The position numbers and the translations under genes are program-made. A stretch of DNA of 64,000 bases from a virus. Taxonomy: Duplodnaviria > Heunggongvirae > Uroviricota > Caudoviricetes. Under the pieces are notes generated by a model that worked only from the letters and a program-made list of their open reading frames with translations, was not told where the DNA came from and searched no databases. The stretch lies in the IMG/VR virus record IMGVR_UViG_3300021963_000036; one strand, given 5' to 3'. Positions 6,427 through 35,795 of this stretch are shown here, one piece after another; positions within the stretch are counted from its first letter, which is position 1; each line of letters begins with the position of its first letter.

Positions 6427-8445
6427 ATGAATATTGTTTATGTAAACTACACAGTGAGAGACAGTGTATTTGATTATGCATGGCTCTCATTTAAAAGTTA
6501 TGTTGAAGATCATTACAAAGGCTCAGTGAATTGGAATTGGCACTATCCAATTAACGATTCACGAGCTAGTAACCCAGAAGAACTCGCACAGAGAATATTG
6601 CACCTTGACCCGAAGGTTGTGATGTTCTCTGCGTACGTTTGGAATGTTGGTCTATCAAGAGAAGTTGCTCGAATCGTTAAATCGCTTCGTTCAGACCTGC
6701 ATATTGTATTTGGTGGCCCTTATTGTGAATACAAAGAAGATCCCGAATATTTCACAAAGCATCCCTACATCGACTTTACTTGCCAGACCGACGGATATGG
6801 CGAACCGTTCATGAACGAGTTCCTGTACCAAGTCGAAACGGATCTAGATTGGGATAAAGTTCCTTTCATGGTCCGTGAAAATGGTTATTCAAAAGCGGTT
6901 TTTAATAAGCGAGACTTTGAATGGCCAAAAAGAATATTCAAACGTAACGCTGACTATCTCCAAAAAGTCAAGGACGAACGTGTCGGATCAATCACGCTTA
7001 TGACTATTTACGAGACACAACGTGGGTGTCCATATGGTTGTACGTTCTGCGAATGGAGCGGTGGCATCAACTCAAAGGTAACTTTTAAGCCGAGTGAAAG
7101 TGTGATTGAAGACTTCACTTGGTTAGCACAGAATGGTTTCCTTGAAGACCTACATATGGTAGAAGCAAACCTTGGTCAACTCGATAGGGACGTTATGCTC
7201 GTTGAAGAGCTGTGCAAGATCAAGAAAGAATACGGTGTGCCTCGTGACGTTATCCTCGCAGGACTGAGCAAGTCAAAGAAACCGAATGTCTATAAGATCG
7301 ACCGACTCTTAGCAGCTTCTGGATTGTCAAACGGATTCAAGATCTCTATGCAGGACATGGATCCACAGGTTCTGAAAAACATCGAACGCGTTGATGAGCC
7401 TTGGGAGAAGCAGTTCAAAGTCTACAACGAACTTCGCGATGAGTTTGGAATCAAACTTCGTGCTGAGATGATTCGCGGACTTCCGGGTACTACACTCGAA
7501 AGCTTCTATAAGCAAGCGGGAGAAATGGCAAAGCACGGAGTGTTCTGGGATAAATACACATGGCATCTGCTCCCAACATCTCCGGCATCAAACCCTGAGT
7601 ATATGAAGAAATTCAGTATCGAAGCAATTGACCTGCTAACGGACTCTATGAAGGGTTCTGCATTCAAAGCTAAGATGATCGATGAGGACGAGTTTACACA
7701 GATCGGCGGACTCGTAAACGATCAAAGGTTTATTCAACCATCGAAGATCGTAGTTGCTACTATGTCATACTCACGAGAAGACTATGCTGAGATGGTAGTC
7801 TCTGATGGAATCATATTTGCTATGGAGACCGAAGGCTATCTATCTCGGATAACCTCATATCTTGACTCCATCGGAATATCACATGCTACATTCTATAAGA
7901 GATTCTATGATACTTTCATTGACCAGAAGTATTTAAATCCTATCCAATTTAATGTGCTTAAAGCAATTATACACCAAGCACTGGATAAAGTAAAGGAAAA
8001 AAGCACAGCTCCGTTCGAATACTACAAGCTCGAAGGCCTACCTTGGAACATCTACGCGAAGATCCCTACTCTCGTCAATATCGCCATCAATGTTAACCGT
8101 GTAGAATTTTATGCTTCCCTTCTTCGATGGATTGTTGACGAATTCGGCAGCGATGAGAAGCTAGATGATCTAATCAACTGGTCAGCGAATTCAGTGAAGT
8201 GGATAGACTATGATCCGACAAAACCTAGAACATTCTTGACTGAGTATGATTGGACTTCAGACGATTTGATCAAAGGTACTTATTTGAATATTCCGTCAGA
8301 CACCGTCTATTCGAACGAGAATATGGATATTGATTGGCATACATTGTCAATGGAAGAAAGAGTGAAACGGTATTTTATTCGGCTATGTGCTTTGCATGGT
8401 AGCAATAAGATGTTTGAACACGTGAGGGTTACTCATGTTGAATAA
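6427..8445 (+). CDS. B12-binding radical SAM protein
   Basis: N-terminal cobalamin-binding-like region (VVMFSAYVWN...IVFGGP) and RGCPYGCTFCEW (CxxxCxxC). Confidence 0.8.
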   Translation: MNIVYVNYTVRDSVFDYAWLSFKSYVEDHYKGSVNWNWHYPINDSRASNPEELAQRILHLDPKVVMFSAYVWNVGLSREVARIVKSLRSDLHIVFGGPYCEYKEDPEYFTKHPYIDFTCQTDGYGEPFMNEFLYQVETDLDWDKVPFMVRENGYSKAVFNKRDFEWPKRIFKRNADYLQKVKDERVGSITLMTIYETQRGCPYGCTFCEWSGGINSKVTFKPSESVIEDFTWLAQNGFLEDLHMVEANLGQLDRDVMLVEELCKIKKEYGVPRDVILAGLSKSKKPNVYKIDRLLAASGLSNGFKISMQDMDPQVLKNIERVDEPWEKQFKVYNELRDEFGIKLRAEMIRGLPGTTLESFYKQAGEMAKHGVFWDKYTWHLLPTSPASNPEYMKKFSIEAIDLLTDSMKGSAFKAKMIDEDEFTQIGGLVNDQRFIQPSKIVVATMSYSREDYAEMVVSDGIIFAMETEGYLSRITSYLDSIGISHATFYKRFYDTFIDQKYLNPIQFNVLKAIIHQALDKVKEKSTAPFEYYKLEGLPWNIYAKIPTLVNIAINVNRVEFYASLLRWIVDEFGSDEKLDDLINWSANSVKWIDYDPTKPRTFLTEYDWTSDDLIKGTYLNIPSDTVYSNENMDIDWHTLSMEERVKRYFIRLCALHGSNKMFEHVRVTHVE

Positions 8446-9004
8446 GATAGTACTCGCAATGAACATTGAGGTAGACGAAGTCTATAAGATTCGAAATCAA
8501 ACTAACCGCGGTGTGAATGCTGAGTTTATAGAATTTTGTATTGAAGATTCCTATGTAAGAGAGCGTGCACTGAAGAATCTAATTGCGAATAAGATGAGTC
8601 CCGACATTATTGCTGCGTTCAAGAAGTTAGACTTACAGACAGTGTTTAGTTCGGTTCCAGATGAACAGTTGGTTGACTTCTTTGAGAAAATGTGTTATAA
8701 ATTAAATGATATGATCTATACGAAATTTGAGGCCAATACCTATAAGCATCATGATCTGAGTGGAACTATTGTGCTACCAGTAGTATATTCTGGCAATAGG
8801 CCATTTACCGATCACAAATACATAGGTTGGATAACTCCGTATAGCATCGACCATTTGTTAGAACATGAGAAGACCACTGAAGACGTTGCTTCAAAAGTAC
8901 AACTCAGATATGCTGAAATGATGAGAAAACATAAGGATGAGTTCGATGTATTTTTTGATGGATCTTCTATAGAAGAAGTATTGGAGTATATCAACAATGA
9001 TTAA
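8435..9004 (+). CDS. Hypothetical protein
   Basis: 189-aa ORF overlapping both neighbours. Confidence 0.6.
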   Translation: MLNKIVLAMNIEVDEVYKIRNQTNRGVNAEFIEFCIEDSYVRERALKNLIANKMSPDIIAAFKKLDLQTVFSSVPDEQLVDFFEKMCYKLNDMIYTKFEANTYKHHDLSGTIVLPVVYSGNRPFTDHKYIGWITPYSIDHLLEHEKTTEDVASKVQLRYAEMMRKHKDEFDVFFDGSSIEEVLEYINND

Positions 9005-10010
9005 CTGGGCATTCACATGGTCTTCGCGCCGAGCACCTGCATGGGAAAATTGTAATGACGCAATGAACCTTGCTCTTGGGCAAGAATGGATCTTCGGTGA
9101 CTACTATCTTCCGGTAAATTCGGGCCGTACTGGTTCACCATTAGTTGACTTTGTGAATGACGAACGTATTGCTCAGCTAAAAGCGCCTATAATTGAACAG
9201 TTTGAATCAGAGTCATTCAAATATGTTATAGAAGATAACAGATCTGGGCAAAACTTTGATGTGGGTGCAAGAAAAGGCCAGTTGATTCTAAAAGAGCATA
9301 TGACCTTGAGTATTTCTCTTACTGAAGAAAATAGTAGAGTAATCGATTTAGATGAGGTGTATTCTTACTTACAAGAATACGATTGGGTAGCACTTGGTAC
9401 ACCTATGAATAACATCGAAATCAGTAAAAAAACTCTGATGGCAAAATCTTTCTTTTACAGTCGTGATAAGTCTTTTAACATAGTGAATCTATCTGGAGAA
9501 AATCAACCTGATAACCTAGTCAAGTCTATCCCAACGGTTACGTATTGTGTATTTAAGAAGACACGAAATGGCGAACTGATTAGCTGCATCGTTAATCCGC
9601 ATTTAGTAGCAGTTCCTCATATGGATCTAAAGATCTATGGAGATAAGCATGCTGTCTTCGCTCTCGATTCATTTGACTCCACAGTTGAAGATTACTTTTT
9701 GAGACCAGTCATATCTGGAAGTGATACAAACGTACTTAATGGAAATGTTATCTTTACAAACGTACAATTCGAACTGCGTGAATACGAAGCTGGTCTGTAT
9801 TTTACGCGCCACAAATCGTATATACCATTTCCAAGAACGATTAAGACTAATCTTGGAATAACGACAGTTGGTAATGTTATTCAAGTAAATCCAACTCGAC
9901 ATTATGGATATATCTCTATAGAGTATGACGTTGACTCTATGATAAATAGCTATGGCCAAGTATCTAAAATTGGCAAACATAAAATCGAATATACCGTAAT
10001 TAGAGGATAA
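8997..10010 (+). CDS. Hypothetical protein
   Basis: 337-aa ORF coupled to its neighbours. Confidence 0.6.
   Translation: MINWAFTWSSRRAPAWENCNDAMNLALGQEWIFGDYYLPVNSGRTGSPLVDFVNDERIAQLKAPIIEQFESESFKYVIEDNRSGQNFDVGARKGQLILKEHMTLSISLTEENSRVIDLDEVYSYLQEYDWVALGTPMNNIEISKKTLMAKSFFYSRDKSFNIVNLSGENQPDNLVKSIPTVTYCVFKKTRNGELISCIVNPHLVAVPHMDLKIYGDKHAVFALDSFDSTVEDYFLRPVISGSDTNVLNGNVIFTNVQFELREYEAGLYFTRHKSYIPFPRTIKTNLGITTVGNVIQVNPTRHYGYISIEYDVDSMINSYGQVSKIGKHKIEYTVIRG
9941..9948 (+). promoter_or_regulatory. Late-promoter-like element (GATAAATA)
   Basis: One mismatch to TATAAATA, about 70 nt upstream of the 10016 ORF. Confidence 0.35.
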
Positions 10011-10015
10011 CCATT

Positions 10016-10210
10016 ATGGTTGCTGACGTAACAAGCACATTTACAGCTAGTCCTACAGTCACCCCAGCAAAAGCAACTGGCTCAACTATTGATGCTGCTT
10101 CTTTTCGAGAGATGGTGAATACGCTCGACGCATTGATTCAGCATAGTCATACCTTTACCGATGACTATACATCTAACTGTCAGTGTAACTGCCAGAGAGG
10201 CAGCATCTAA
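10016..10210 (+). CDS. Small protein with HxH motif and Cys-rich tail; putative radical SAM substrate
   Basis: 64 aa ending HSHTFTDDYTSNCQCNCQRGSI, directly abutting a SPASM radical SAM gene. Confidence 0.65.
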   Translation: MVADVTSTFTASPTVTPAKATGSTIDAASFREMVNTLDALIQHSHTFTDDYTSNCQCNCQRGSI

Positions 10211-11860
10211 GTGACAACAAATTATGTGAATGTGAAAAGGGTACTCAGTGAAGCCCAAAAGAAACGCTTAGAAAATCATACGCCAACTGTTGTTGAACAG
10301 GATGGCAAGTTAGTCACAACCTTTGAGACCATCAATATCTCAGGTAAAGGGCAGAAGACAAACAAACTCATTACGGTTCTTCCAGCTGAAGAAGAGCAAG
10401 CAGTTCCATTTGCCGATGCGGAGTTTCTATATCGTGACCTGATTCAAGTCAATGCGATGTTGACAAACGCATGTAACCTCAGTTGCTCTTACTGCTACGA
10501 GCAACACAATAAAGACTTTGGTCGATTCACAAAAGAATCCCTTAAGCAAGTCTATGATTGGATGAACTCTCGTAACAATGGCAAGAAGAAGGTGTTCCAA
10601 TTCTTTGGTGGTGAACCCCTTATCCATAAGCCTCTGATTAAAGAGTTTCTCGAAACCTACGATGAAGAGTTGTCGGGTAACTATAAAGACTATCGTGGCA
10701 CATACATTTCGATGTGTACAAACGGACTTCTATTGAATGATGAATTCATTGAGTTCTACTTTGGTAAACCATACACTCACATGATGTTGAGTCTTGATAC
10801 CCTCAATTCTGCAATTGATCATAGAGAAATCACTCCTGCACAGCTGAACAAAGTTCTCAAGAGTATCGACAAGATCGTAGAAGTTCTCGGTGATGATGCG
10901 AACCGTCTTGTGATTCGAGCTACGCTCTCACAAGAGACTTCACGTGACATGAAGAACTTCATCGAGACCTTGTATGACCACGGAATTCGTAACATGGTTG
11001 TTCATCCACTCGTGCTTGACTCAAGACATGGCTACATCTCATGGAAAGACGATAACTGGCAGAATATGCGAAATGCAATCTTCGGTGCACTTGAGAAGTA
11101 TGAAGACCTTTACATTCGATTCTCTGAAGGTGTTGGTCTGAAGGAAGATAGCAACTGCATGGTTGGCTCACATATGGTGGCTATCGATGCGTCTGGTGAC
11201 TTCTCAGGTTGCTACTTCTTTACGAATCAGAAATCTAATGGCGCTGACATCGCTGTGCTCGGGAATGTGTTCCAGGATCGTGTATACATAGATCGGTACA
11301 AGAAGTTTCAAAGCGCTTATCAGGAGATGTTCGACACAGAAGAGCAGTGTCGAACCTGCGACTATCAGGATGCTTGCTATCAATGCCCTGCTGGTAATAT
11401 GGATACTGGTTCGAGAATCTTCCGCCCTGACGATATGTGCCAAAAGATTGTAAAGCTTTACGTTGACTTCCAACATGACGTAGCAAAGAAACTATTCATG
11501 CGACACGTGAAGAAACGATACACTCGACTGCAAGAACATGGTGAAAAAGTCTTAGCTGCGGAGTTGCAGTACTTTTATGAGAAATTTAATGGGAGCGGCA
11601 TAGATGATTTTGAGCATTATTTACGGATGGATCTTCCTCATTATAGTGATGTCATACGTGCCTGGACCGTGGACAGCGAAACCCAAGCAGCCGATCTACG
11701 TTCGCTCTACAACGTCCTCGCAAAAAGATTCGACAAACCAAGAATCGATATCGAAATCACATCTGACTTCATAAAGTGTTATTATATCCAATGCATATCG
11801 ACGATCATCTTCGACAAGAACAGAATGAACGAAGTCAAACTTACGACTTTGCTGGAATAA
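10211..11860 (+). CDS. Radical SAM/SPASM protein
   Basis: CNLSCSYC, FFGGEPL, SPASM-like CMVG...GCYFF and CRTCDYQDACYQCPAG...C. Confidence 0.85.
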   Translation: MTTNYVNVKRVLSEAQKKRLENHTPTVVEQDGKLVTTFETINISGKGQKTNKLITVLPAEEEQAVPFADAEFLYRDLIQVNAMLTNACNLSCSYCYEQHNKDFGRFTKESLKQVYDWMNSRNNGKKKVFQFFGGEPLIHKPLIKEFLETYDEELSGNYKDYRGTYISMCTNGLLLNDEFIEFYFGKPYTHMMLSLDTLNSAIDHREITPAQLNKVLKSIDKIVEVLGDDANRLVIRATLSQETSRDMKNFIETLYDHGIRNMVVHPLVLDSRHGYISWKDDNWQNMRNAIFGALEKYEDLYIRFSEGVGLKEDSNCMVGSHMVAIDASGDFSGCYFFTNQKSNGADIAVLGNVFQDRVYIDRYKKFQSAYQEMFDTEEQCRTCDYQDACYQCPAGNMDTGSRIFRPDDMCQKIVKLYVDFQHDVAKKLFMRHVKKRYTRLQEHGEKVLAAELQYFYEKFNGSGIDDFEHYLRMDLPHYSDVIRAWTVDSETQAADLRSLYNVLAKRFDKPRIDIEITSDFIKCYYIQCISTIIFDKNRMNEVKLTTLLE

Positions 11861-12894
11861 GATCTGTCACAATCTATCTTGGCGATACGTGCAACTTCGA
11901 CTGCGTCTACTGTGATAGAGCATATATTAAGCACGACATTGGTTCACAGAACCTGAACAAATCTGACTTTGACGACATCATAGAGTTTATGAAAGTCGTT
12001 AAAGAACAAGCCAAAGATCTGAAAGCAATTTCATTTCATGGTGGCGAACCATTTTTATATGTGAAGAGAATGGACGAATTACTCGACGCGCTTGATCCGA
12101 TCTTTGGCAAAGACATGGAATACTACATCACGTCGAATGGATCGAAGATCGTTGAGAATGAATGGTTCTTTCAGAAGTGGCCAAAGATTCATATCACTCT
12201 GAGTTACGACTTTAATTATCAATTAGTCAATAGAGAATATGTAGACCTGAAAGCAATTTCAGATGTAATCTATCGTAACGATTGCTACATGATGTTTCAG
12301 TTTGTTATTCCACCAGACGGTTTTGGTGAAGACACACTTGCTGAAGTAATTCGATCATGCAAACTGGCTCGATGCGATACTATCAATATCATTCCACTTC
12401 GGCATCATCGTGGCGCAAGAAAGTTCAAAGTCCTTATTGACGATTTTGATATGAAGTGGTATAGTGTTTACTTAATGCGGTTCATTCATACGCTGTATGT
12501 ACAAGGAATCACTCTCAACATCGACGGAAACTATCATGGCATCGACAAACAATACTTAAACAACCACAGCAAAATGATTCTGAGTCCCGATGGATACGTC
12601 TATCCGGAATTCGATTATCTTGAGTATAAGAGAAAAGAATTTCGAATTGGTAAGTGGAAGGGCGGCATCGAACTCGATCGAGTCAAGGACGAGAATCAAT
12701 TCATTCTTCCCGGCTGTGTCTCGTGTCATATGAGAGACGCATGTGGATTGAAGTATCTCTATAAGATGTTCGATGAAGAGCCAAAGGGAAATTGTGTTGA
12801 CTTCTACACTACTATCAATCTCATGGTGAAACACCTTCATGCGCTCAAACAGAAACCAACTCTGATGCATTGGATTGGGATCGGCGATGGATGA
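11776..12894 (+). CDS. Radical SAM protein with partial SPASM-like C-terminus (start uncertain, 11776 or 11791)
   Basis: CNFDCVYC, FHGGEPF, C-terminal CVSCHMRDAC...C. Confidence 0.8.
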   Translation: MLLYPMHIDDHLRQEQNERSQTYDFAGIRSVTIYLGDTCNFDCVYCDRAYIKHDIGSQNLNKSDFDDIIEFMKVVKEQAKDLKAISFHGGEPFLYVKRMDELLDALDPIFGKDMEYYITSNGSKIVENEWFFQKWPKIHITLSYDFNYQLVNREYVDLKAISDVIYRNDCYMMFQFVIPPDGFGEDTLAEVIRSCKLARCDTINIIPLRHHRGARKFKVLIDDFDMKWYSVYLMRFIHTLYVQGITLNIDGNYHGIDKQYLNNHSKMILSPDGYVYPEFDYLEYKRKEFRIGKWKGGIELDRVKDENQFILPGCVSCHMRDACGLKYLYKMFDEEPKGNCVDFYTTINLMVKHLHALKQKPTLMHWIGIGDG

Positions 12895-13396
12895 ACTATA
12901 TCGAGCTGCATGTAGCGTGAAGACAATTCCGGCAATGAGCTACCACAATTGGAAGACGTGGCACGAATGGCCGTATCGCACGATTGCTGATCATATTACA
13001 CATGACAAAACTATCATCGACGTCGGTGCAGGTTGTGGCTTTCTAAGCATGCATCTTCTCATGACTGGAAAATGTGATAGGGTTATTGCTTACGATACAC
13101 GAGAAACCATGTGTGAGTTCATGTCGATATTGAGTAACGTATTAGGGCTCGCGACTCGACTTGATGTAAAGTGCGAACCTTTCCAAAGTAATCGACATGA
13201 CAACTTAACGGTCTCGACTCGACTTGGGTTTCCAAACATACTATTCAACAACAAAGCTACAACCGTAACGATGGCTCGTACAAAGGAATGTGAGCCGATC
13301 TTTAAGTACGTCGAAACTCCAATTGATTGGAATGAGAAAGTCGCTACTCGTGACGATGGATTCACTATGAGGTTGCTATGGAACTATCAGCAATAA
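12887..13396 (+). CDS. Class I SAM-dependent methyltransferase
   Basis: Motif I IIDVGAGCGFLS followed by VIAYD. ATG at 12887. Confidence 0.7.
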   Translation: MDELYRAACSVKTIPAMSYHNWKTWHEWPYRTIADHITHDKTIIDVGAGCGFLSMHLLMTGKCDRVIAYDTRETMCEFMSILSNVLGLATRLDVKCEPFQSNRHDNLTVSTRLGFPNILFNNKATTVTMARTKECEPIFKYVETPIDWNEKVATRDDGFTMRLLWNYQQ

Positions 13397-13746
13397 TTCT
13401 CCTATACGATGATGATTTTGAAGTTCCTCTCGAAGGAATCTATGGTGTTGTCTATATGATTCCGGGCTTGACAAGGCAATTCCCTTGGTGGATACGTCGA
13501 TTCTCTTTTGCTGAGCATTACCCTATGCCAGATTTTGTAATACCTAATCCAGGAAAGTCAACAGTAATCGGTGTGCCGCTGAGTGAAACTGCTCACGTGT
13601 ATCGCATGGCGATCTTTGGTCAACGTTGGATTGAAGACGTCAATAGAGAAATTGTTTCAACGTTTCCACCTGTGAATGAAGTGAGCGTGCAGGGAGATGA
13701 TTACGTTCCTGACATAGATTTGATGAGGGTTCTCCAAAATGTCTGA
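13378..13746 (+). CDS. Hypothetical protein
   Basis: 122-aa ORF overlapping both neighbours. Confidence 0.55.
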   Translation: MELSAIILLYDDDFEVPLEGIYGVVYMIPGLTRQFPWWIRRFSFAEHYPMPDFVIPNPGKSTVIGVPLSETAHVYRMAIFGQRWIEDVNREIVSTFPPVNEVSVQGDDYVPDIDLMRVLQNV

Positions 13747-14875
13747 TGAAGGCGAAGAGTTCCGTAAGTTCAAAGACCATGACTCGTACTTCATAACTGA
13801 AGATGCGCTCATGCCTCTACATCATGATATAACGTTTAGTCCGACTCGTAAATACTATTGTGCTGCGAATTGCCAAGTTTGTTACATCAAGAAGAAACTG
13901 AACGCACATCTACCGTTCTATTCGGAAGCTATTCCAGAGAAGATCACTAGTGAAGACGAGAAGCGATGGTACGACATTTTTAGTTACTTCTATGTGATAA
14001 GAGTTGTTGACGATCTGAAGTTTTTGAAAGCTCATTACCCTCACATCTATGGTTGGTACAAAGAGCATGCACCGACTTTCGAATACGGCATGACTGACAA
14101 CGCGATCATTCAACAACACGAGACTCTCATGGAACTCGACATGAAGAGTCTATCCGAGGTTGCATTGAGTGAAGAGTTCATGAACAAAGTGAATTCGAAA
14201 AAGAACTATAACAAAGTCATGGAAATCCTGCAAGACTATATTGACAAATACGATCTTCATAAAGTCAAAGTGATCAAGACTTCGAACGAAGAACTTCCAT
14301 ATCATGCAAGAGAACTTGTCGAATGGATCAATGACAAAGGAATCGTTACTTCACTTCACAATGATTATCGTAAAACAAATGTGAATGATAACGAACTTGG
14401 GAATGTTGATCACGATTTGAATGGGCTCTTTGATTATCAGAATAGTCACGTCCTTTGTTATAATGATCGAACGTATCAAGTCTATCGTGGTTCTTTGCAC
14501 CTGTATGGCGATCGATTCTTCTATAGTATTGACGATGCAACTGACATCAATTGGGATCCGTTTCATACGATGAATGGCGACTTCGATCATCAGAAGTTTA
14601 TGACCGATATGATCCAAGGCAAGTTTAATTTGTATTCTAAGTTTGCTAATGAATTAAAGAATGCTGGAAGCGATATCGCAGAAAAATTCCGTAGCTACTA
14701 TATAAATACTACTGACAAGTTTATGGTTGACCGTGAATTCAATTTCATTCCCAATATTATGCTGAGCGACAAATCAAAATACTATCACAAGTTGGTAGAA
14801 CTCGGTTATCGTCCTACTGAAGTTGGATTGTATTTACCAAATGGTTCTCCAAAACCAATTATTGGATTCAGGTAA
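13739..14875 (+). CDS. Divergent radical SAM-like protein
   Basis: CAANCQVC (CxxxCxxC) near the N-terminus; no GGEP and no SPASM cysteines. Confidence 0.55.
   Translation: MSDEGEEFRKFKDHDSYFITEDALMPLHHDITFSPTRKYYCAANCQVCYIKKKLNAHLPFYSEAIPEKITSEDEKRWYDIFSYFYVIRVVDDLKFLKAHYPHIYGWYKEHAPTFEYGMTDNAIIQQHETLMELDMKSLSEVALSEEFMNKVNSKKNYNKVMEILQDYIDKYDLHKVKVIKTSNEELPYHARELVEWINDKGIVTSLHNDYRKTNVNDNELGNVDHDLNGLFDYQNSHVLCYNDRTYQVYRGSLHLYGDRFFYSIDDATDINWDPFHTMNGDFDHQKFMTDMIQGKFNLYSKFANELKNAGSDIAEKFRSYYINTTDKFMVDREFNFIPNIMLSDKSKYYHKLVELGYRPTEVGLYLPNGSPKPIIGFR
14701..14708 (+). promoter_or_regulatory. T4 late promoter
   Basis: Exact TATAAATA about 175 nt upstream of the 14881 ORF. Confidence 0.55.
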
Positions 14876-14880
14876 AAGAA

Positions 14881-15252
14881 ATGGCAATATTAGCAGGAAC
14901 TACTTCTACTGACGTAGCATTATCGTTACGTACAACTTATACTACACCGCTGTTGGCACAAATCGCAAGCGGTAACACAGTGCAAGCTGCGCACATGACA
15001 TTACTCAAAAACTTCATTAATGCTATTGAACCGCATACTCATACGCTAACCGACTATTCTAAAATTCACGAATTTGGAAACACAGATAGTACATTATCAA
15101 CTGTAGATACTGTTACTGCCGTATCAACATCTCCTATATCAGCGACATATGCGACTGGTGGCACCATTACTGCAGCTGATTATACAGCAATGCGTACAAC
15201 TGTAGAGGCACTCAGAGTACACAATCACGCATGGGATGATCTAACGGCATGA
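14881..15252 (+). CDS. Small fibre-like protein with two HxH-motif repeats; putative radical SAM substrate or structural partner
   Basis: Internal repeat ASGNTVQAAH...HTHTLTD / ATGGTITAAD...HNHAWDD, similar to the 10016 protein. Confidence 0.65.
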   Translation: MAILAGTTSTDVALSLRTTYTTPLLAQIASGNTVQAAHMTLLKNFINAIEPHTHTLTDYSKIHEFGNTDSTLSTVDTVTAVSTSPISATYATGGTITAADYTAMRTTVEALRVHNHAWDDLTA

Positions 15253-27739: not shown

Positions 27740-28889
27740 TAAAGTCTATATAGATTTTGATGAAAAAATTAATATGAGTTATGATCGAATTATCGTGTCG
27801 TCTGAACACGGTGGTAATGAGATTTTAACTGACCTGAAAGTTGTGTTTTATGGTAGTGTTTTAGCTACCGTTAAATCTGTTGATAATCTATTTGGCGAAA
27901 GCGCACCATACTCATCGTTTTTAGATATGTTGATTGCAGTAAAAGAGTGCGGTGATGAAAGTAACCGCCCTGTATACATTTACTGTGATTTTGAATCATA
28001 CTACAAACTAGCTAGTAAATGGCTTAAATTGCTTTTGCCTAATGCTACTACTACAGATGGATGGAAGTTTTTTAAATCACATATGTTCAAAGAAAAGAAC
28101 TTTATCAACAGCCGTATGTCAGCTACACAGCGATTCGCAAATAGTGTTTCTGAGACTTGGGCTTTAGAAGAAGCGCTATTCACAACTTGTTGGGAAGCAG
28201 ACGCAGAAATCAGATCTGACTATAAACAATTCATCGATTCTGTGAAATCAAAACTTAGAGTTGAGTTCCTATTAGCGTCTTATCTTTACGATGGCAGATA
28301 TGCTGAAGAATTAGCTTTTTGTATGTCTCCACTTATCAAGAAAGATATTGAAAAGTTTCTATACGAACATAAAGAAATTTTGCTTGTACACTTCCAAAAA
28401 CCACTGTTTCAACAGCTACTGCAAGTTCAAAACGGACCATATACGTTTGATAATTTTTATGATATGCCAAACGATCCAGCTCCAATGATCGAAGTAATGT
28501 GTCGTCCATCCATTTGGGGTAACACAAAGACGTCTATGTCTGCACCATCTGCTGCTGGCAATATCAACTTGCAAAATATTACAGCAGTTGACATTTCTGT
28601 TCTAAGGCAGTATAGTATTGTAACCGGCACAGTTTGGACTGATGAGCAATGGTATACTATACTGAGATCTGAAATAGATAAGCTAGATTTTATTCCATTC
28701 TTTGCTAATGGTGATGTCATTAGTGTTGCGGATATGCAGAAAGTTATCGATTATGAACTGCACCATCACAATCATGCTGCCGGTGCATTCTATGCTATCG
28801 ACCTAGGATCTGTCAATACATACTTCGTTGACTTTATCCTACAGAACCACCAAAATAAAGAACTCCTTCTTAAATATACGTTAGGTTAA
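27723..28889 (+). CDS. Hypothetical protein
   Basis: 388-aa ORF overlapping the upstream gene. Confidence 0.6.
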   Translation: MFHLFNKVYIDFDEKINMSYDRIIVSSEHGGNEILTDLKVVFYGSVLATVKSVDNLFGESAPYSSFLDMLIAVKECGDESNRPVYIYCDFESYYKLASKWLKLLLPNATTTDGWKFFKSHMFKEKNFINSRMSATQRFANSVSETWALEEALFTTCWEADAEIRSDYKQFIDSVKSKLRVEFLLASYLYDGRYAEELAFCMSPLIKKDIEKFLYEHKEILLVHFQKPLFQQLLQVQNGPYTFDNFYDMPNDPAPMIEVMCRPSIWGNTKTSMSAPSAAGNINLQNITAVDISVLRQYSIVTGTVWTDEQWYTILRSEIDKLDFIPFFANGDVISVADMQKVIDYELHHHNHAAGAFYAIDLGSVNTYFVDFILQNHQNKELLLKYTLG

Positions 28890-28891
28890 TA

Positions 28892-29374
28892 ATGCTTGAG
28901 AACTTTTTATTGAATGGATTCGCGACTGGTATTATGCAGTCTGATTTGGCTTTTTTGTTTAAGAGATTCCAGTTTGCTGATTGCAACGATGGTGATTCTG
29001 AGATAGACCCTGAAGCAGTAAACTTGCTAAATGCACTACACTCATTCATCAGCAATACTTATGTGTCACCTCTATTTAGTGAATACACCATTGCGCGAAG
29101 CTGTATGTGGACCGGCGTGGATAGTCTATCTAAAGACTGGCATAATGATAACTGTGCAGAGTTCAACAGCAATTTCTTAATATATCTAGACGATGGGGAG
29201 ACCTACGGTAACTCTATTGAGATCAAAACACCTTCTGAAGAGTTTAAAATCTATCCAAAGAAGAATCAATTTGTATGGTTGAACCAAGACAAAAAATTCT
29301 TGCACAGAGCTACTCATGTCAGTGGTCCTAGACGCCTGTTGTCATTCGAGTTTAAGATACCAGCCATTCCATGA
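28892..29374 (+). CDS. 2OG-Fe(II) oxygenase
   Basis: WHND...LIYLDD...LHRA...GPRR (HxD...H...R). Confidence 0.7.
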   Translation: MLENFLLNGFATGIMQSDLAFLFKRFQFADCNDGDSEIDPEAVNLLNALHSFISNTYVSPLFSEYTIARSCMWTGVDSLSKDWHNDNCAEFNSNFLIYLDDGETYGNSIEIKTPSEEFKIYPKKNQFVWLNQDKKFLHRATHVSGPRRLLSFEFKIPAIP

Positions 29375-30381
29375 GCATATATGATGTAATTGGCCAGAAG
29401 GTCATTGATTACGCAGAAATCGTAGTCTGTTTATTTGAACATTGTAATCTTGCGTGTGTATTCTGTCCTCAGGATCACCGATCAATAGTTGGCGCGAGTA
29501 GAGAAGAAATACTTGCGAAGGTCGATAGCATAGCCGAGTGGATAAACAACAACAAAAGATCAAAGCATTTTAAGATCCACTTGATGGGTGGTGAGTTGTT
29601 TCAGGACCATTGGATAGAACGCGGTTTTCTTGACATCTACCAAGAGTTTATAGAAAGCATTCGTAACAAAGTGATTGGCGACAAATTTGTTGAAGCCAAC
29701 TTTATCACTAATCTATTGTTTGATGATGTAGAAACGATTCAGTCATTCTTAGAAGAACACGACTACATCATATCTGTATCGTACGATCCGACTGGCAGAT
29801 TTAACAACGATCAACTAGAACAGTTTAAGTCTAACGTAGTTCTGCTAAAAGATCGAATTCGAATGATCAGTTGTGTTGCGACTAAGCAAAGCATTAAGCG
29901 TATCATAGACGGTGATACGTTCTTTGATTATCTGTATGCTAACTTCCCGTGTGATTTTGATTCGCTTATTCCAGCTGTTAGCACATCAGAAGCACTGATG
30001 CCAAGCGAGACTGAGATGCTGGCATTCTACAAGCATCTTGTCGACAACTATCCTGACTGTATAAATATTGCGTACTTCACTGAAGATACTCCGACGAATA
30101 AGATGTCATGTACTAGAGGTAATAGTTATACTGTATTACCTACCGGTCCAGTTCCAATTGGGTGCTCTGGCTCTATATTTCTAACGAACCCATCATCGAA
30201 CGATCTATTCTCTGGTATGATAGTAGAGAAGTTTATCAATCGGTATAATTGCTTTGAATGTGAGTTCTACAAGAAGTGTCCATTTACATGCTTTATTAAA
30301 AATGACTACTCTAAGATAAAAAGAGACCTAGGTGAATGTGTTTTCAAAGAGACCTTTAAGTATGTTGAATCAAAAAGTTAA
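29371..30381 (+). CDS. Radical SAM protein with SPASM-like C-terminus
   Basis: CNLACVFC, LMGGEL, CFECEFYKKCPFTC...C. Confidence 0.8.
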   Translation: MSIYDVIGQKVIDYAEIVVCLFEHCNLACVFCPQDHRSIVGASREEILAKVDSIAEWINNNKRSKHFKIHLMGGELFQDHWIERGFLDIYQEFIESIRNKVIGDKFVEANFITNLLFDDVETIQSFLEEHDYIISVSYDPTGRFNNDQLEQFKSNVVLLKDRIRMISCVATKQSIKRIIDGDTFFDYLYANFPCDFDSLIPAVSTSEALMPSETEMLAFYKHLVDNYPDCINIAYFTEDTPTNKMSCTRGNSYTVLPTGPVPIGCSGSIFLTNPSSNDLFSGMIVEKFINRYNCFECEFYKKCPFTCFIKNDYSKIKRDLGECVFKETFKYVESKS

Positions 30382-32110
30382 TATAGCGTTTATCAACCCG
30401 CCTCATGCTGATTGGTGTTTGGCAAATAACGCTGCGTATCTGATGTTTCAAAGTCACTACAGTAGATACGGTAAGTTTGGTGATAAAGTAAACTGGATTC
30501 CGGCTCCGTATAAGTTCAACGAGTATCAATCTATTGAAGACATCTATGAAGAAGTAAAAGATGCCGACATCTTCTTATTCTCTAGCTATATCTGGAACTA
30601 TGACATATGCGACTCGTTATGTTCATTTGTCAAAGATGTTAAGCCAAATGCAATTTGTGTATTAGGTGGTCCGCAGATTGGTACTAACGATGCCGAATTT
30701 TTAAACTCTCGACCGGCATATGACTTCATACTTAAGCCGACTAAACCTGGAGAAGAGTTTGTAAAAGATCTGATCGACTCATACTTCGAGAATAATAAAC
30801 AACCGAAGCGTGAAGATCTATCATGGGAACTGAACAGTGAGAAAACTTGCCCGCAATTCATGCAAGACTATAGTGTATATAGCGAACACTTCGACTATTT
30901 GAAAGAGACACGAACCTACGCTCAAGACAACTACCTTGAACCGTTCTGTATTTTAGAAACCACCCGTGGGTGTCCATACAGTTGTAGTTTTTGCGAATGG
31001 GGAGGTGGCATTGGATCTAAGGTATACAAAAAACCAACGGATGTTGTGAAGCAAGACATCCTTGCTCTTAGAGATGCTGGCTTCAGAGACATGTATCTAA
31101 CAGATGCAAACTTCGGAGCCTTTGTCGAAAGAGACATGGAAATCTTTAAGTTTGCATATGATAACAAAGCAAACCTCACCGACATTAGTACAATGAAAAG
31201 TAAGGATCTAGCCAGACGTATCAGTTTGGTTGATGCTTGCTTCAACGTAGTTGGAACTGGTCCCGAGATGCATAGCATATCTACTACCAAAAAAGAAGGC
31301 GGGTTTATCCTTGTAGCAGGAGCACCAGAATATACCGCGCAGGTTAATGAAGGAAATCCATACATCAGTATAGTACCAACCGTCAGCCTGCAAAGTGTCA
31401 GTGAAGAAGCTATGAAGGTTGCTGCAAGGGTTGACTTGAAGCTAGATGATAAGTTGAAGTTAAGCGAACACATCAATAAAAGATGTCACGAACAGGGCTA
31501 TCCCGTGCCAGCGTTAGAGTTGATTTTAGGTATGCCGGGAAGTACGAAAGACGACTTCTATAGAGAGTTCGATATACTATGGAACTTTAAGTCGTGGAGT
31601 AGTTTCAGACATGATTATATGTTTTTGCCGGATTCGGCCTTGACAAACCCAGAATACATCAAGAAGTATAAGATCGAACTAGTAGAAGTTTACACCGATC
31701 TTATTGACGAAGAGGGTGTTGACAATCAGTTAAGTTTCTACAAGTCGAAGAGAAATCGGTTTAAGACGATATCGTCTTGCTACTCATACAGTTACACCGA
31801 CATGTGCGAAATGTGGTTTATGAATATCGCTGGTAATACTCTGTTGAAAGAACTTTACCACCTATTTGAAAATGATATAACTCCTGGAAATTTCGGTAAA
31901 CTATGTTACGAAATAATTTCAAGACTCGACGATTATAAACCAATACGCGATGAGATCGCAGATATATTGAATCCTGCAACACCTGCTAGAAATATTAAGC
32001 GCTTAGATGGTGTGCTTAGAAATCAGACTATTAACAATCTACTAGATAAGTATAAAACAATCATAATATCAGAGATGTTTAAACATCTTCATGTTAAGGG
32101 TGCAGCATGA
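30362..32110 (+). CDS. B12-binding radical SAM protein (paralogue of 6427..8445)
   Basis: FLFSSYIWN...VLGGP and RGCPYSCSFCEWGGGIGSK. ATG at 30362. Confidence 0.8.
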   Translation: MLNQKVNIAFINPPHADWCLANNAAYLMFQSHYSRYGKFGDKVNWIPAPYKFNEYQSIEDIYEEVKDADIFLFSSYIWNYDICDSLCSFVKDVKPNAICVLGGPQIGTNDAEFLNSRPAYDFILKPTKPGEEFVKDLIDSYFENNKQPKREDLSWELNSEKTCPQFMQDYSVYSEHFDYLKETRTYAQDNYLEPFCILETTRGCPYSCSFCEWGGGIGSKVYKKPTDVVKQDILALRDAGFRDMYLTDANFGAFVERDMEIFKFAYDNKANLTDISTMKSKDLARRISLVDACFNVVGTGPEMHSISTTKKEGGFILVAGAPEYTAQVNEGNPYISIVPTVSLQSVSEEAMKVAARVDLKLDDKLKLSEHINKRCHEQGYPVPALELILGMPGSTKDDFYREFDILWNFKSWSSFRHDYMFLPDSALTNPEYIKKYKIELVEVYTDLIDEEGVDNQLSFYKSKRNRFKTISSCYSYSYTDMCEMWFMNIAGNTLLKELYHLFENDITPGNFGKLCYEIISRLDDYKPIRDEIADILNPATPARNIKRLDGVLRNQTINNLLDKYKTIIISEMFKHLHVKGAA

Positions 32111-32628
32111 TGAAAGACATTACCATAAAGGGTTTTATCAAGTTTTCAGAGCCTGAAGCACTGGGTCTCATTAACGTGTCAGAATTTAGACTTCTAAACA
32201 CCGAAGAGCGTTCTCGCGATAACGGTGAGAAGGACATCCACCCCGAACTAAAAAGTCGAATGAACATCTTTGCGCAGTATTTGACTCACAAGTATATCTT
32301 ACCTGAGTGGCCAACTGCAAGATATAATAAATTCTTAATATGGGACGGGGTTGATGCTGATAACCAAGGTTGGCATACTGATATGTTTGAAGGATACGAC
32401 ATATTCTTTCTATACTACTTCGACACTCAGCATCCAGATACAGGTGGATCTATCAATTTCAAATGGCGTGATGATACAGGTACTGAACAGACTGCTCAAT
32501 TTTATCCACAAGCTGGCGATTTGTTTATGGTCAATAATTGTAGAGGGTTCTGGCATCGAGCGGAGTCAACTAAGATTACTCGACGAGTAGCCAGTTTCGA
32601 TTTTAACGTGGGGTTGATCGATGACTGA
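32107..32628 (+). CDS. 2OG-Fe(II) oxygenase
   Basis: GWHTD...LYYFD...TGG...WHRA...RR. Confidence 0.7.
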   Translation: MMKDITIKGFIKFSEPEALGLINVSEFRLLNTEERSRDNGEKDIHPELKSRMNIFAQYLTHKYILPEWPTARYNKFLIWDGVDADNQGWHTDMFEGYDIFFLYYFDTQHPDTGGSINFKWRDDTGTEQTAQFYPQAGDLFMVNNCRGFWHRAESTKITRRVASFDFNVGLIDD

Positions 32629-32926
32629 AACGGAAGAGTTACTAAAGAAGAAAGAAGACCTTAGTCAAGAGCGAGATCTTTGCGCTGAGGTTTACAACGT
32701 ATGGATTACTAAGATGCATGATCATCAAGACAATCCAGAAAAGTACAAAATGTACATGGATATGATCCAAGTGATGGAACCTTACGGTCAAGTAATCAAA
32801 GCAGAGATCAGAGACATAAATCGCAGGCTGTGCGAGATAGAAGGTGTTGACTCTATCGATCAAACCAAGTATATTAGAGAATGCAGTTATAAGTATGGAA
32901 AAGATCGTCCTAACGCAGACGTTTAA
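32621..32926 (+). CDS. Hypothetical protein
   Basis: 101-aa helical ORF coupled to its neighbour. Confidence 0.55.
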   Translation: MTETEELLKKKEDLSQERDLCAEVYNVWITKMHDHQDNPEKYKMYMDMIQVMEPYGQVIKAEIRDINRRLCEIEGVDSIDQTKYIRECSYKYGKDRPNADV

Positions 32927-32938
32927 CAAAGTGACATA

Positions 32939-33976
32939 ATGGACCTAATAATCAAGCCGACAGAAGTGTGCAACTTCAAATGCACGTTCTGTTCGTCAAC
33001 AAAAATATCTGCAGATCATACAAGTCAATTAGACTTAGATCGAGTGTACCGTTTTCTCAAGAGATATCCGAACACTAACACAATAATTGTGAACGGCGGA
33101 GATCCTTTGATGATGAGTCCAGCTTACTACTGGAGACTCATCAAGCATCTCGATGATAACAACTACCCAGCGACGATATCGCTTACGACTAACCTGTGGC
33201 CATTCTATAAGAATGTGTCAAAGTGGAAACAGTTATTTCTTCATCCTCGTATAGGTGTAGCAACGTCATTTCAGTATGGCAATGGTAGACTGAAAGGTGA
33301 TTATTCAGTCTTCACTGAAGAAGACTTCTGGGCTGCTTCGAATTCGATGTTGGAACATGTTGGATACCGACCAAGCTTTCTAGCTGTGATCACCGAAGAA
33401 AACGAAGACAGCGTGATACAGACTGTTGAGTTAGCTAAGAAGATGGACGTGGTCTGCAAAGTTAACTATGCTATGGCAAGTGGAGATCAAGACAAGCCGT
33501 ACAGATTGTCAAAGATCTACGAGAAATACATTGAGATATGGAAAGCCGGACTGGCACCATGGGAGCATAACACTCAACAGATGTTGAAGCGTCTAAAGGG
33601 TGAAAACACAATCTGCCCACAGAGTAGAACATGTGACTCGCATATTAGAAATATCAATCCAGAAGGAGACTACTATTCATGTGGTTCGTTTGGAGATGAC
33701 AAAGATAAGTCTATAGATTTTGAATACGAGATGGCAGGAGGATTCTCTACTCCACTAACTGATGACTTAAACTTACTATCTCTGAAAAGATCGTGCTTGA
33801 CGTGTCCAATGTTTGAAATATGTAATGGTTGTAGAAAGACTGTAAAGGACCTAAAGAACTTTGGGATGGTTGAAGAGCATTGCCGCCATATGAAACAACT
33901 TGCGCCAGAAATTATTCTAGCAAATGGATTAACTCTAGAGCCAACTCCATATGTGGATGAATCATGTATACTGTAA
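32939..33976 (+). CDS. Radical SAM/SPASM protein
   Basis: CNFKCTFC, VNGGDPL, CPQSRTC...SCGS, CLTCPMFEICNGC...C. Confidence 0.85.
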   Translation: MDLIIKPTEVCNFKCTFCSSTKISADHTSQLDLDRVYRFLKRYPNTNTIIVNGGDPLMMSPAYYWRLIKHLDDNNYPATISLTTNLWPFYKNVSKWKQLFLHPRIGVATSFQYGNGRLKGDYSVFTEEDFWAASNSMLEHVGYRPSFLAVITEENEDSVIQTVELAKKMDVVCKVNYAMASGDQDKPYRLSKIYEKYIEIWKAGLAPWEHNTQQMLKRLKGENTICPQSRTCDSHIRNINPEGDYYSCGSFGDDKDKSIDFEYEMAGGFSTPLTDDLNLLSLKRSCLTCPMFEICNGCRKTVKDLKNFGMVEEHCRHMKQLAPEIILANGLTLEPTPYVDESCIL

Positions 33977-34875
33977 GTATCAACCCGTCATACTTCTGCA
34001 ATTTCAGTTGTGATTTTTGTTATCTAACTGACTCTCAACTTCGTGATACGAAAAAGATAAGTTTAGAGAAATTAGATGAATTACTGAGTCAAGTACCTGG
34101 CATAGAACATATTGATCTTTATGGCGGTGAAATCGGTGCGCTGAAGAAAGATTACTTCTATTTGATGAAGGACGTAATTCGAAAGCATTACAACGGAGAC
34201 ATCAATATCATCACAAACTACTCAATGATCCATGACGGTTTCTATGAAGACGATGTATACCTCTCAGTGTCTTATGATTTTGAAGCAAGAGAAAAGTCTG
34301 AACTGGTCTATAGGAACATGCTCATGTCGCCCGTTCCTATCGCCGTACTCATACTTGCTTCGCCAAAGGTATTACAGATGAATGTTGAAGAGATGATATC
34401 GATGCTGAACATGTGTTCTTCTATTGAGTCAGTAGAGATAAAACCGTATTCAATAAACCAAGCCAACTCATTTAAAGTTACACACCAAGATTATGAGAAC
34501 TTTGTTATCAAGTGGTTAACAGCTATCACTACAAAGAAGTTTCAGTTTATAAATGAGTCTCACATTCAGAATTCATACAATGGTAACTATAATGCGTTCT
34601 CTGATAACCACGTCTACATTACGCCAAATGGAAAGTTTGGTGTACTTGAATTCGATAAATATGATAGAGAGTACTTTTTAGAACTTGATTCTTGGGGTGA
34701 ATATGTATCATGGGCGCAAAAGGAAAAGACTGAGCTAAGTGATATTTGTAAGGAATGTAAATACTACGGCGGATGTCTAACTGAACACTATAGATATGTA
34801 GAAAATTTAGACACTAGCTGCAATGGATACAAAGGGCTTTTAGATTGGTATGGCTATGCAAGAATGGAAAGTTAA
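33964..34875 (+). CDS. Radical SAM protein with partial SPASM-like C-terminus
   Basis: CNFSCDFC, LYGGEI, CKECKYYGGC...C. Confidence 0.8.
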   Translation: MYTVSINPSYFCNFSCDFCYLTDSQLRDTKKISLEKLDELLSQVPGIEHIDLYGGEIGALKKDYFYLMKDVIRKHYNGDINIITNYSMIHDGFYEDDVYLSVSYDFEAREKSELVYRNMLMSPVPIAVLILASPKVLQMNVEEMISMLNMCSSIESVEIKPYSINQANSFKVTHQDYENFVIKWLTAITTKKFQFINESHIQNSYNGNYNAFSDNHVYITPNGKFGVLEFDKYDREYFLELDSWGEYVSWAQKEKTELSDICKECKYYGGCLTEHYRYVENLDTSCNGYKGLLDWYGYARMES

Positions 34876-35254
34876 ACAAGAAATCTATCATAGACTCAAT
34901 CAAGAGTACACTGATGATTTAAACAGTGTTGACATTACTATAAGCGAAGATTACAGCGATATCGTTCGACACTTCCACGAAAAGGTTGATGAATGGATAT
35001 ATCCAGCTAAGAGTTATTTTGTCGCAGTATGTTATGCAAGTTGGATCAGTTCTGACTACGGCGAAGATCTTATTGACTTACTCAAAGATTCGATGTTACT
35101 TGCTGGAAATGATCCATATTTTGTAACTTACAATCAAGATCCTGAGACGTACGACAAAATCTTAAACGACATTACATTACCACTAAAAATGACTGGTATG
35201 GTGCCAGATGTGAGGGAATATTACAATGAAGAGATTGGATTTAGGATTCAATAA
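34850..35254 (+). CDS. Hypothetical protein
   Basis: 134-aa ORF overlapping both neighbours. Confidence 0.55.
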   Translation: MAMQEWKVKQEIYHRLNQEYTDDLNSVDITISEDYSDIVRHFHEKVDEWIYPAKSYFVAVCYASWISSDYGEDLIDLLKDSMLLAGNDPYFVTYNQDPETYDKILNDITLPLKMTGMVPDVREYYNEEIGFRIQ

Positions 35255-35795
35255 TCTTTACCCAACTTCGGTGTACTTATCGAAGATTAGTAAAGAAGAT
35301 TGCGAAACTATACTGACAGGTGTCATGTCAAACGAAGTTGTTACCTCTCCGGGTGATGATGACGCTTCACTCGTAATACATAAGATACCAAGACTTCGTG
35401 AACTTGCAGAAGAAAAGTTCGCTGAGTACCTCGATAAGGTGTGTGGTATTAGCCTTTATGACTACGAGTTTAAGTTCAAATCATGGTTGACTGGTAGTCG
35501 TGGCGGCTACAGTATGGATACTCATAACCATGCCGGTTCGCCATTTGTTGCTGTTTTCTATATCATGGCTGAGCATGAAGACAAAGGTGGAGAGATTGTT
35601 TTCAGTGATCCTCGAACCAACGCAAACCGCGGATATACTTTAGAATTCCAACAGCAGTTTAAGCCGACTGTTCATATGCCACAGACTGGAGATGTTGTTG
35701 TTTTTCCAGGTTTTCTATATCACCATGTCAGAAGATATGATTCAACTCTGCGCATAGCACTACCTGTCGATTTGTTTCTATACGATCACGATTGA
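35226..35795 (+). CDS. 2OG-Fe(II) oxygenase (TIGR02466-like)
   Basis: THNH...VAVFY...GGEIVFSDPR...GDVVVFPGFLYHHV...RI. Confidence 0.75.
   Translation: MKRLDLGFNNLYPTSVYLSKISKEDCETILTGVMSNEVVTSPGDDDASLVIHKIPRLRELAEEKFAEYLDKVCGISLYDYEFKFKSWLTGSRGGYSMDTHNHAGSPFVAVFYIMAEHEDKGGEIVFSDPRTNANRGYTLEFQQQFKPTVHMPQTGDVVVFPGFLYHHVRRYDSTLRIALPVDLFLYDHD

Follow-up and report, generated by a model that had tools for sequence, protein, structure and literature searches.

Two radical SAM gene cassettes beside the tail-fibre genes of a T4-like phage, each paired with its own small Cys-tailed protein as candidate substrate

The completion of a phage particle is generally attributed to folding, proteolysis and self-assembly. 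Among enzymes that alter proteins after translation, QhpD, a radical S-adenosylmethionine (SAM) enzyme with a SPASM domain, installs Cys thioethers within the chain of a small subunit, which is retained in a larger assembly, and the anaerobic sulfatase-maturating enzyme acts on Cys or Ser in a C-x-x-x-R context. The nearest published precedent for the locus described here is the HXS antiphage system, in which the protein HxsA is matured by the radical SAM enzymes HxsB and HxsC with HxsD (Li et al., 2026, PMC13128918). We analysed a stretch of 64,000 nucleotides of viral DNA (IMG/VR record IMGVR_UViG_3300021963_000036; the window hereafter) and studied positions 6427–35795, where an original prediction had placed two islands of radical SAM genes inside the tail-fibre region and had read them as one phage system for modifying virion appendages, akin to the pathways that make ribosomally synthesized and post-translationally modified peptides (RiPPs). 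All genes listed below lie on the + strand, and several are named by their first nucleotide. The source is an uncultured aquatic T4-like phage; its capsid gene shares about 75% DNA identity with cyanomyovirus genes, and T4-type neck, sheath-stabiliser and terminase genes follow downstream of the studied region. The reading that we favour, and hold to be fairly probable, is that the region contains two separate cassettes, each of which matures a small protein of its own post-translationally, in the style of a RiPP or of a protein-derived cofactor.

The two islands are not parts of a single system, as had been predicted, but two unrelated cassettes that are conserved separately. Cassette I, at 6427–17266, is conserved independently of cassette II, which covers 24910–35795 and is built around a 204-residue protein with a tail of Cys-His units (the CH tail). 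In most other phages, cassette II occupies the slot that holds cassette I in the window. Neighbourhood analysis of the homologues showed that each cassette keeps its own kind of tailed protein: all 36 complete loci of cassette II have the CH tail, and all 29 cassette I loci have an end of the form CxCxC..RGxx (27 viral loci found with a profile of the 13739 family, plus two further contigs). Cross-controls of this pairing gave 0/80 and 0/29. Since no complete locus lacks its tailed protein, the small proteins are the likely substrates, and not the long fibres.

The 204-residue protein of cassette II (26410–27024) is a folded protein ending in (Cys-His-x-Ser)x3-RGRR; it is a candidate substrate and probably a virion protein. 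The small proteins had been described as fibre-like, but the structural model of this one is a globular alpha/beta domain with a predicted local distance difference test score (pLDDT) of 83 and a predicted template modelling score of 0.79. Across 37 relatives the only invariant positions are R93 and the tail C-H-x-S-C-H-x-x-C-H-x-x-R-x-R-R, and the homologues of Pseudomonas phage DT01, Ralstonia phage RSL2 and Agrobacterium phage Atu_ph07 all end in the same CH tail. The gene is tightly placed, starting between −28 and +39 nucleotides from the stop of the upstream SPASM enzyme gene in 52 of 56 loci. A Foldseek search of the PDB found no match for the fold, the best VIA-align result (Z 4.6) was at noise level, and the AFDB and BFVD databases returned the protein's own family only. 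Variants include two tandem copies, a multiplied repeat, and longer forms with a glycine-rich domain or a large insert. On a contig of Dysosmobacter segnis (L130:3-362), for example, the Cys-His-x-Ser unit is multiplied to about 15 before the same RGRR end. In the longer metagenomic forms (P0259, P0266 and P0267) the glycine-rich domain is N-terminal (PF21722) and the large insert lies within the fold, which suggests that the body may act as a display scaffold that varies.

The tailed-protein gene also has a regulatory motif to itself. The T4 late-promoter consensus, TATAAATA, lies at 26233–26240 on the + strand, inside the 25388 enzyme gene and 177 nucleotides 5' of the tailed-protein gene. 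Among homologous loci, 47 of 53 have it no more than 400 nucleotides 5' of the tailed-protein gene, often within the enzyme gene, compared with 0 of 58 upstream of the cupin gene and 2 of 70 upstream of the 32939 family. This distribution suggests that the tailed protein would be made late and in excess over its enzymes. Over the whole + strand of the window, TATAAATA is found twelve times (at 14701, 17276, 26233, 30060, 35815, 40177, 41815, 47204, 47910, 48851, 50238 and 52465), against about four expected from base composition by our own estimate; most copies stand 15–45 nucleotides 5' of structural genes, and one stands 180 nucleotides 5' of the gene for a 123-residue protein of cassette I.

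A homologue of the tailed protein is found in virus particles. The virion proteome of Atu_ph07 lists gp170 with 8 unique peptides and 35% coverage (Attai et al., 2018, Table S5, PMC6102473), and gp170 (L115:9983-10873) is that phage's homologue of the CH-tailed protein. The same table contains gp176, which carries the fibre end shared with the window, and gp177, and lacks gp164–169, gp171 and gp172 (PMC6102473); no cassette II enzyme was detected in the virion. The gene numbering of table and genome agrees, because the masses calculated for the RefSeq proteins, 31.89, 66.07 and 21.66 kDa, equal the table values. In the gel, gp170 was recovered from bands 1–9 with its peak in band 1, and other proteins of about 30 kDa peak in bands 7–8 (PMC6102473). 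Such anomalous migration of a 31.9 kDa protein hints at a covalent or very stable complex resistant to sodium dodecyl sulphate, with which it would fit.

The enzymes were assigned by motif and by profile hidden Markov models. All ten predicted open reading frames with a CxxxCxxC motif exist and hold one such motif each, at residue 201 in 6427, 88 in 10211, 39 in 11776, 41 in 13739, 70 in 15249, 13 in 25388, 25 in 29371, 214 in 30332, 11 in 32939 and 12 in 33964. Nine of them match Pfam Radical_SAM or NCBIfam radical SAM families: PF04055 is at or above its cut-off in 6427, 10211, 11776, 15249, 32939 and 33964, and below it in 25388, 29371 and 30332, which nonetheless have NCBIfam support. The exception is 13739, for which a weak CbpB match was obtained (E 7.8e-4); its CxxxCxxC motif is invariant across 17 relatives, and comparison of its profile with a true radical SAM family was not significant, the Cys motif alone being aligned (probability 0.65%). 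The prediction of SPASM enzymes in each island held, with the full motif CX2CX5CX3C in 10211 and 15249 of cassette I and in 25388, 29371 and 32939 of cassette II; the motif is partial in 11776 and 33964 and absent from 13739 and from both B12 enzymes. Matches to Pfam SPASM or TIGR04085 were also obtained. Each cassette likewise has its one B12-type radical SAM enzyme, with the B12-binding domain above the Pfam cut-off in 6427 and below it in 30332, which yet matches the KedN5 type at E 3e-30. With 128 and 105 bits against a cut-off of 700, the two fall outside the KedN5 family itself (NF033712) and are best placed, on sequence, in the same class. The pattern recurs for PapB (NF047865), where 10211 reaches 111.9 bits and 25388 reaches 59.6 against a cut-off of 340, and for the HXS families (TIGR03976–03979), where HxsB scores are at most 69 bits against 370 and HxsC scores at most 29.8 against 268. 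The best family matches are nevertheless peptide or protein maturases, namely PapB, sulfatase maturase, DynA, QhpD and HxsB, and the crosslinks, C-methylation and hydroxylation of the original prediction would follow from these family names. As for the other predicted enzymes, the DUF3050 protein is clear; two of the four oxygenases (24910 and 35226) lie above the Pfam cut-off and the other two (28892 and 32107) just under it; and the methyltransferase match is present but weak, at 25.2 bits against a 27-bit cut-off.

Cassette II is widespread. Relatives of the 32939 enzyme place it on at least 337 viral contigs, and clustering of this enzyme family at 90% identity gives at least 1418 clusters; the maturation proposed here would thus concern phages that are abundant and come from marine, freshwater and soil habitats. 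Among cultured jumbo phages, its gene order is kept in Pseudomonas phage DT01, Ralstonia phages RSL2 and RSF1, Burkholderia phages FLC6/8 and Agrobacterium phage Atu_ph07, and Sinorhizobium phage Phosso has homologues of two of its genes. A near-identity DNA search with both islands against 50,697 phage records found no relative, and protein searches of cultured phages with the 6427 enzyme and with the 204-residue protein gave no match. Constant in the 36 complete loci are the cupin, three to four radical SAM enzymes, the tailed protein and proteins of 242 and 134 residues; the B12 enzyme and the number of oxygenases vary. The cassette opens with a cupin/JmjC-like oxygenase (24910–25410; Cupin_2 at 29.6 bits, above cut-off), found in 35 of the 36 loci, whose start overlaps the stop of tail fibre 3, as predicted. 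It is followed by the SPASM enzyme that is translationally coupled to the tailed protein (25388–26407; 42–48% identity in jumbo phages) and, beyond the tailed protein, by two conserved proteins of 242 residues (phrog_20767) and 388 residues to which no function was assigned (27011–28889). A 2-oxoglutarate (2OG)-Fe(II) oxygenase-like protein (28892–29374; 24.1 bits, under the 27-bit Pfam cut-off), a SPASM enzyme present in 31 of 36 loci (29371–30381) and the accessory B12-binding radical SAM enzyme, present in 22 of 36 (30332–32110), come next, and then a second 2OG-Fe(II) oxygenase-like protein (25.9 bits, under the 27-bit cut-off) together with a 101-residue protein without assigned function (32107–32926). 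The most conserved gene of the cassette encodes a SPASM enzyme (32939–33976) with 54–62% identity to jumbo-phage genes. A radical SAM enzyme with a partial auxiliary Cys set follows (33964–34875; 36 of 36 loci), and the cassette ends with the 134-residue conserved protein (phrog_20737) and a 2OG-Fe(II) oxygenase at 35226 (2OG-FeII_Oxy_5, 43.3 bits, above cut-off; the two spanning 34850–35795). For the proteins without assigned function, NCBIfam and PDB profile searches returned nothing, and Atlas gave only a lead (0.80) to viral DUF7698. The cassette II copies of RSL2 and RSF1 are interrupted midway by dihydrofolate reductase genes and by a gene for an HNH endonuclease (L011:11918-12454 and L150:8188-9477).

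In cassette I the candidate precursor is a 64-residue peptide (10016–10210) consisting of a helix, an HxHxFxDDY motif and a C-terminal CxCxC-xRGxx; it is present in 29 of 29 loci, and its stop directly abuts the start of 10211. Residues H43, H45, D49, C55, C57, C59, R61 and G62 are invariant in 21 relatives, and in the family the end is made up of three to five Cys-x units, then xRG, then two more residues. In Ralstonia jumbo phage RP12, an unannotated open reading frame of 65 residues between ORF074 and ORF075 (L034:6105-6302; about 10870–11068) is a copy of this peptide and ends in CNCNCACTRGSL. A 123-residue paralogue (14881–15252), recognised by its sequence similarity to the peptide, has two helix + HxHxxxD repeats and no Cys, with H52, H54, D58, H114, H116 and D120 invariant, so that the two proteins together comprise three such units. 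A complex prediction for the pair scored 0.51, with 0.00 for the best of three controls, which lends weak support to an association: of 80 solved complexes, 58 passed the mark used, as did 2 of the 110 pairs that were mismatched, and scores of at most 0.60 among those passing came from 7 of the 80 solved complexes and from both of the mismatches. The runs shared at least 77% of contacts, with a partner pLDDT of at least 56.

The core of cassette I, found in all 29 loci, comprises the two small proteins and four radical SAM genes, usually with DUF3050. It is syntenic with ORF074–080 of RP12, where ORF074 and ORF076–080 correspond to 14881, 10211, 11776, 13739, 15249 and 16430 in the same order and at 30–42% identity. 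The accessories (B12 enzyme, two uncharacterised proteins and methyltransferase) occur in closer relatives only. The cassette begins, as predicted, eight bases after the stop of fibre 1 with the accessory B12-binding radical SAM enzyme of the KedN5-like C-methyltransferase type (6427–8445; Pfam B12-binding and Radical_SAM; NF033712 at E 3.6e-37, far below cut-off), which is present in 13 of 29 loci and missing in the more distant ones. Two accessory proteins of 189 and 337 residues without family match or assigned function (8435–10010) co-occur with it. Then come, after the 64-residue peptide, a SPASM enzyme (10211–11860; Pfam Radical_SAM and SPASM; PapB as best match, with E 3.5e-32 and a score under the cut-off; SPASM motif located at residue 380; 42% identity to ORF076 of RP12) and a radical SAM enzyme with a partial, twitch-like auxiliary Cys set (11776–12894; 36% to ORF077). 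These two listed reading frames overlap by 85 nucleotides (11776–11860), and the true start of the second may lie further downstream. The weakly matching SAM methyltransferase of 173 residues and a 122-residue protein without assigned function (12875–13746) are present in the closest relative only. They precede the divergent radical SAM-like protein with the invariant CxxxCxxC motif (13739–14875; 30% to ORF078), whose family is small and cassette-specific, with 115 clusters among 1.84 billion representatives. Beyond the 123-residue paralogue lie a further SPASM enzyme (15249–16523; 36% to ORF079) and, at the cassette end, the DUF3050 protein of the HamA/MgoB, heme-oxygenase-like type (16430–17266; PF11251 at E 1.4e-77, 261 bits against a cut-off of 22.2; 34% to ORF080). 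The RP12 homologue of the latter has been named MgoB-like (PMC5468394).

Both cassettes stand behind a fibre with the same kind of end. Tail fibre 1 (3548–6418) and tail fibre 3 (20837–24913), both matching tail-fibre PHROGs, close with a Peptidase_G2-type (G2) domain, in fibre 1 the last ~155 residues (about 5939–6415) with an invariant D-L-A-E and in fibre 3 about 24431–24910. The two ends are, as had been claimed, the same domain, with 57% identity over 153 residues. Peptidase_G2 (PF11962) matches 27 of 29 members of the fibre-end family, the best at E 4.8e-8; the window copy itself stays below the cut-off (E 0.011; 15.5 against 25 bits). The model of the fibre end matches the phi29 gp12 structures 3suc and 3gqh, D45 and E48 are invariant, and no sequence relative was found in the PDB. 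The shared end, which contains YADLAEKY, can thus be assigned to the self-cleaving chaperone domains of Peptidase_G2 type, and cleavage is predicted. A reading frame with this end stops less than 700 nucleotides upstream of a cassette of either type in 61 of 64 loci, usually less than 65. The domain is undetectable near the cassettes of RP12, RSL2 and DT01, which adjoin structural genes despite this. Between the cassettes lie the genes for a 110-residue fibre-assembly-like protein (phrog_3304), an 81-residue protein and tail fibre 2 (17888–20788; tail-fibre PHROGs), together spanning 17309–20788, which by synteny are the usual right-hand neighbours of either cassette. The long fibres themselves, considered as substrates in the original prediction, were rejected: Cys is absent from fibres 1 and 2, and an HxH motif from all three.

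In the mechanism that we consider, the 204-residue protein would fold into its globular domain and leave the 16-residue (Cys-His-x-Ser)x3-RGRR tail free. The SPASM enzyme encoded upstream most likely acts on this tail, probably by forming a Cys thioether crosslink or by oxidising Cys or Ser, by comparison with PapB, QhpD and the sulfatase maturase, and the other radical SAM enzymes, the optional B12-type methylase and the cupin and 2OG oxygenases would add further changes. Made from what would be its own late promoter, the finished protein would enter the virus particle, probably at the fibre or baseplate, and the enzymes would stay behind. In cassette I, the 64- and 123-residue proteins probably form a three-helix bundle with three HxHxxxD motifs, possibly a metal site, and the four radical SAM enzymes and the heme-oxygenase-like oxidase would modify this bundle, chiefly at the CxCxC end. 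What survives of the predicted phage RiPP-like maturation system is thus its dedicated enzyme sets with their own Cys-tailed protein, and what falls away is the fibre substrate and the single pathway.

The invariance of the tails, while the protein bodies vary, speaks for this scheme, and a number of observations weigh against it. The virion evidence comes from one distant homologue, with 29% aligned identity over 69 residues, and the 204-residue fold, being like nothing known, gives no clue to its place in the particle. All maturase family matches are far below the curated cut-offs, the proposed modification is read from family resemblance, and the Cys/His tails might be no more than metal ligands. 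The virion proteome table of phage RP31 contains no cassette I protein; as that study used excised gel bands and lists nothing under 12.8 kDa, it could have missed the small proteins. A virion location is thus supported by Atu_ph07 for the cassette II family and is conjectural for cassette I. In a scan of species genomes, moreover, about two dozen assemblies of Bdellovibrionota proved to carry the core of cassette II together with the same tail; contigs of 2.4–2.8 Mb bear some of these copies, one copy is flanked by housekeeping genes rather than prophage, and no G2-domain protein lies within 10 kb of the cassette; these copies have no nearby fibre gene, and cassette II can therefore work without phage fibres. 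The cassette I marker was not found in five Bdellovibrionota genomes. Finally, no leader protease, recognition domain or exporter was recognised among the uncharacterised proteins. This last point cuts equally into a different explanation, in which the products of the cassettes are peptide natural products that are set free (bacteriocin-like, signalling or metal-binding) and act outside the particle, the small proteins being standard RiPP precursors from which the core is cleaved. Its attractions are the classic layout of precursor beside maturase, the typical precursor size of the 64-residue peptide, the tandem copies or multiplied repeats of some loci, the Bdellovibrionota copies outside a phage context and the missing cassette I homologue in RP31 virions. 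But neither cassette has a recognised protease or exporter gene, the conserved and confidently folded 185-residue body of the 204-residue protein is unlike a leader peptide, gp170 is found in Atu_ph07 virions, and the cassettes keep a constant place among late structural genes, with a late promoter motif; we regard release as unlikely.

The metal-binding objection can be extended to the view that the Cys/His tails are plain metal or iron-sulfur sites and that the enzymes act elsewhere, on the fibres, on an envelope glycan or lipid, or on a cofactor or nucleotide. CxCxC, CH repeats and HxH motifs are indeed typical metal ligands, phage radical SAM enzymes are known to take part in DNA hypermodification (PMC8989533), and relatives of the window phage have been remarked for many iron-sulfur proteins (PMC5332604). 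Yet in phage lineages that are unrelated, and in bacteria, the gene for the tailed protein is coupled to the enzyme genes and inherited with them, the family matches point to peptide maturases and not to nucleotide or lipid enzymes, neither cassette holds a nucleotide-, sugar- or lipid-handling gene, and the Cys and HxH content of the fibres speaks against them as targets; this makes such a division of roles quite unlikely. More improbable still, in our estimate, is that a hot spot of recombination behind the fibre genes has taken up the cassettes as selfish or accessory cargo, which would serve host takeover or counter-defence and be linked to the virion incidentally. Both cassettes do use the same slot behind a G2-domain fibre, the distribution is patchy (10 of 301 sampled Bdellovibrionota genomes carry cassette II, five of the ten being the seeds of the search), and a homing endonuclease and dihydrofolate reductase genes have entered the RSL2 and RSF1 copies. 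Against cargo stand the strong purifying selection, with the 32939 enzyme 54–62% identical between marine and soil phages, the tailed-protein homologue in the virion, and the fact that the cassette still adjoins structural genes in phages without a G2 domain.

Post-translational maturation of the cassettes' own small proteins, our preferred reading, would mean that many large phages spend 10–20 kb on oxygen-sensitive radical enzymes that rebuild the end of a small particle protein. It would supply new substrate motifs and enzyme families for radical SAM peptide chemistry, connect the adsorption or entry of phages with machinery that predatory bacteria also possess, and offer a testable explanation for gene blocks that jumbo-phage papers list among "other genes" (PMC5468394, PMC8066314, PMC11898562). 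Nishimura et al. described a T4-like marine genome with 12 radical SAM genes and read them as iron-sulfur metabolism (PMC5332604). Our literature search found no functional description of either cassette, the papers found only listing the genes, in line with the original prediction that the system had not been described. A bolder extension, which we put forward as doubtful, is that large phages and Bdellovibrio-like predators share an enzyme-built, crosslinked or redox/metal-active Cys-His device on a small host-contact protein, mounted in phages at the tip freed by self-cleavage of the fibre G2 domain and serving attachment to, or passage of, the envelope of Gram-negative cells; in function it would mirror HxsA, the bacterial gatekeeper, and as virion chemistry made by enzymes it would form a class of its own that is new.

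Set beside known systems, the locus shares single features with several. The auto-chaperone of phi29 gp12 resembles the ends of fibres 1 and 3 in sequence, fold and the invariant D..E pair, and so concerns the fibres and not the cassettes; the window copy differs in lying below the Pfam cut-off, with its cleavage predicted from sequence and fold. QhpD, from the QhpD/QhpC pair of quinohemoprotein amine dehydrogenase, is among the enzyme matches, weakly (19–69 bits against 453), but the cassettes have no dehydrogenase partner and the motifs differ. The sulfatase maturase (TIGR03942) ranks second among the full-length matches of 25388 (E 1.5e-13), and the tail closes with a unit that reads C-H-x-S-R; the score, however, is 50.6 bits against 349, a sulfatase is missing, and the tail repeats its unit three times. 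The ranthipeptide, sactipeptide and CXXX-repeat systems (PapB/PapA, CteB/SCIFF, TIGR04115) also place a SPASM enzyme gene beside a Cys-repeat C-terminal core, and PapB is the best match of 10211 and 25388. In contrast to these, the window enzymes score 60–112 bits against 340, the candidate substrates are a folded 204-residue protein and a two-protein pair, and the cassettes combine several extra radical SAM enzymes and oxygenases, without a recognised protease or exporter, in a phage structural module. From HXS, cassette II differs in having a Cys before every His, in placing the repeat at the extreme C-terminus with an RGRR end, in its four to five radical SAM enzymes plus oxygenases and in its phage carrier; its enzymes reach 15–69 bits against HxsB and HxsC cut-offs of 268–370, and the tailed protein matches no HxsA or other NCBIfam model. 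The likeness lies in the design: the substrate in HXS is a whole protein rather than a short peptide, two radical SAM enzymes mature it at its His-x-Ser repeat, and the mature form acts at the cell envelope; the tail of cassette II has three His-x-Ser units.

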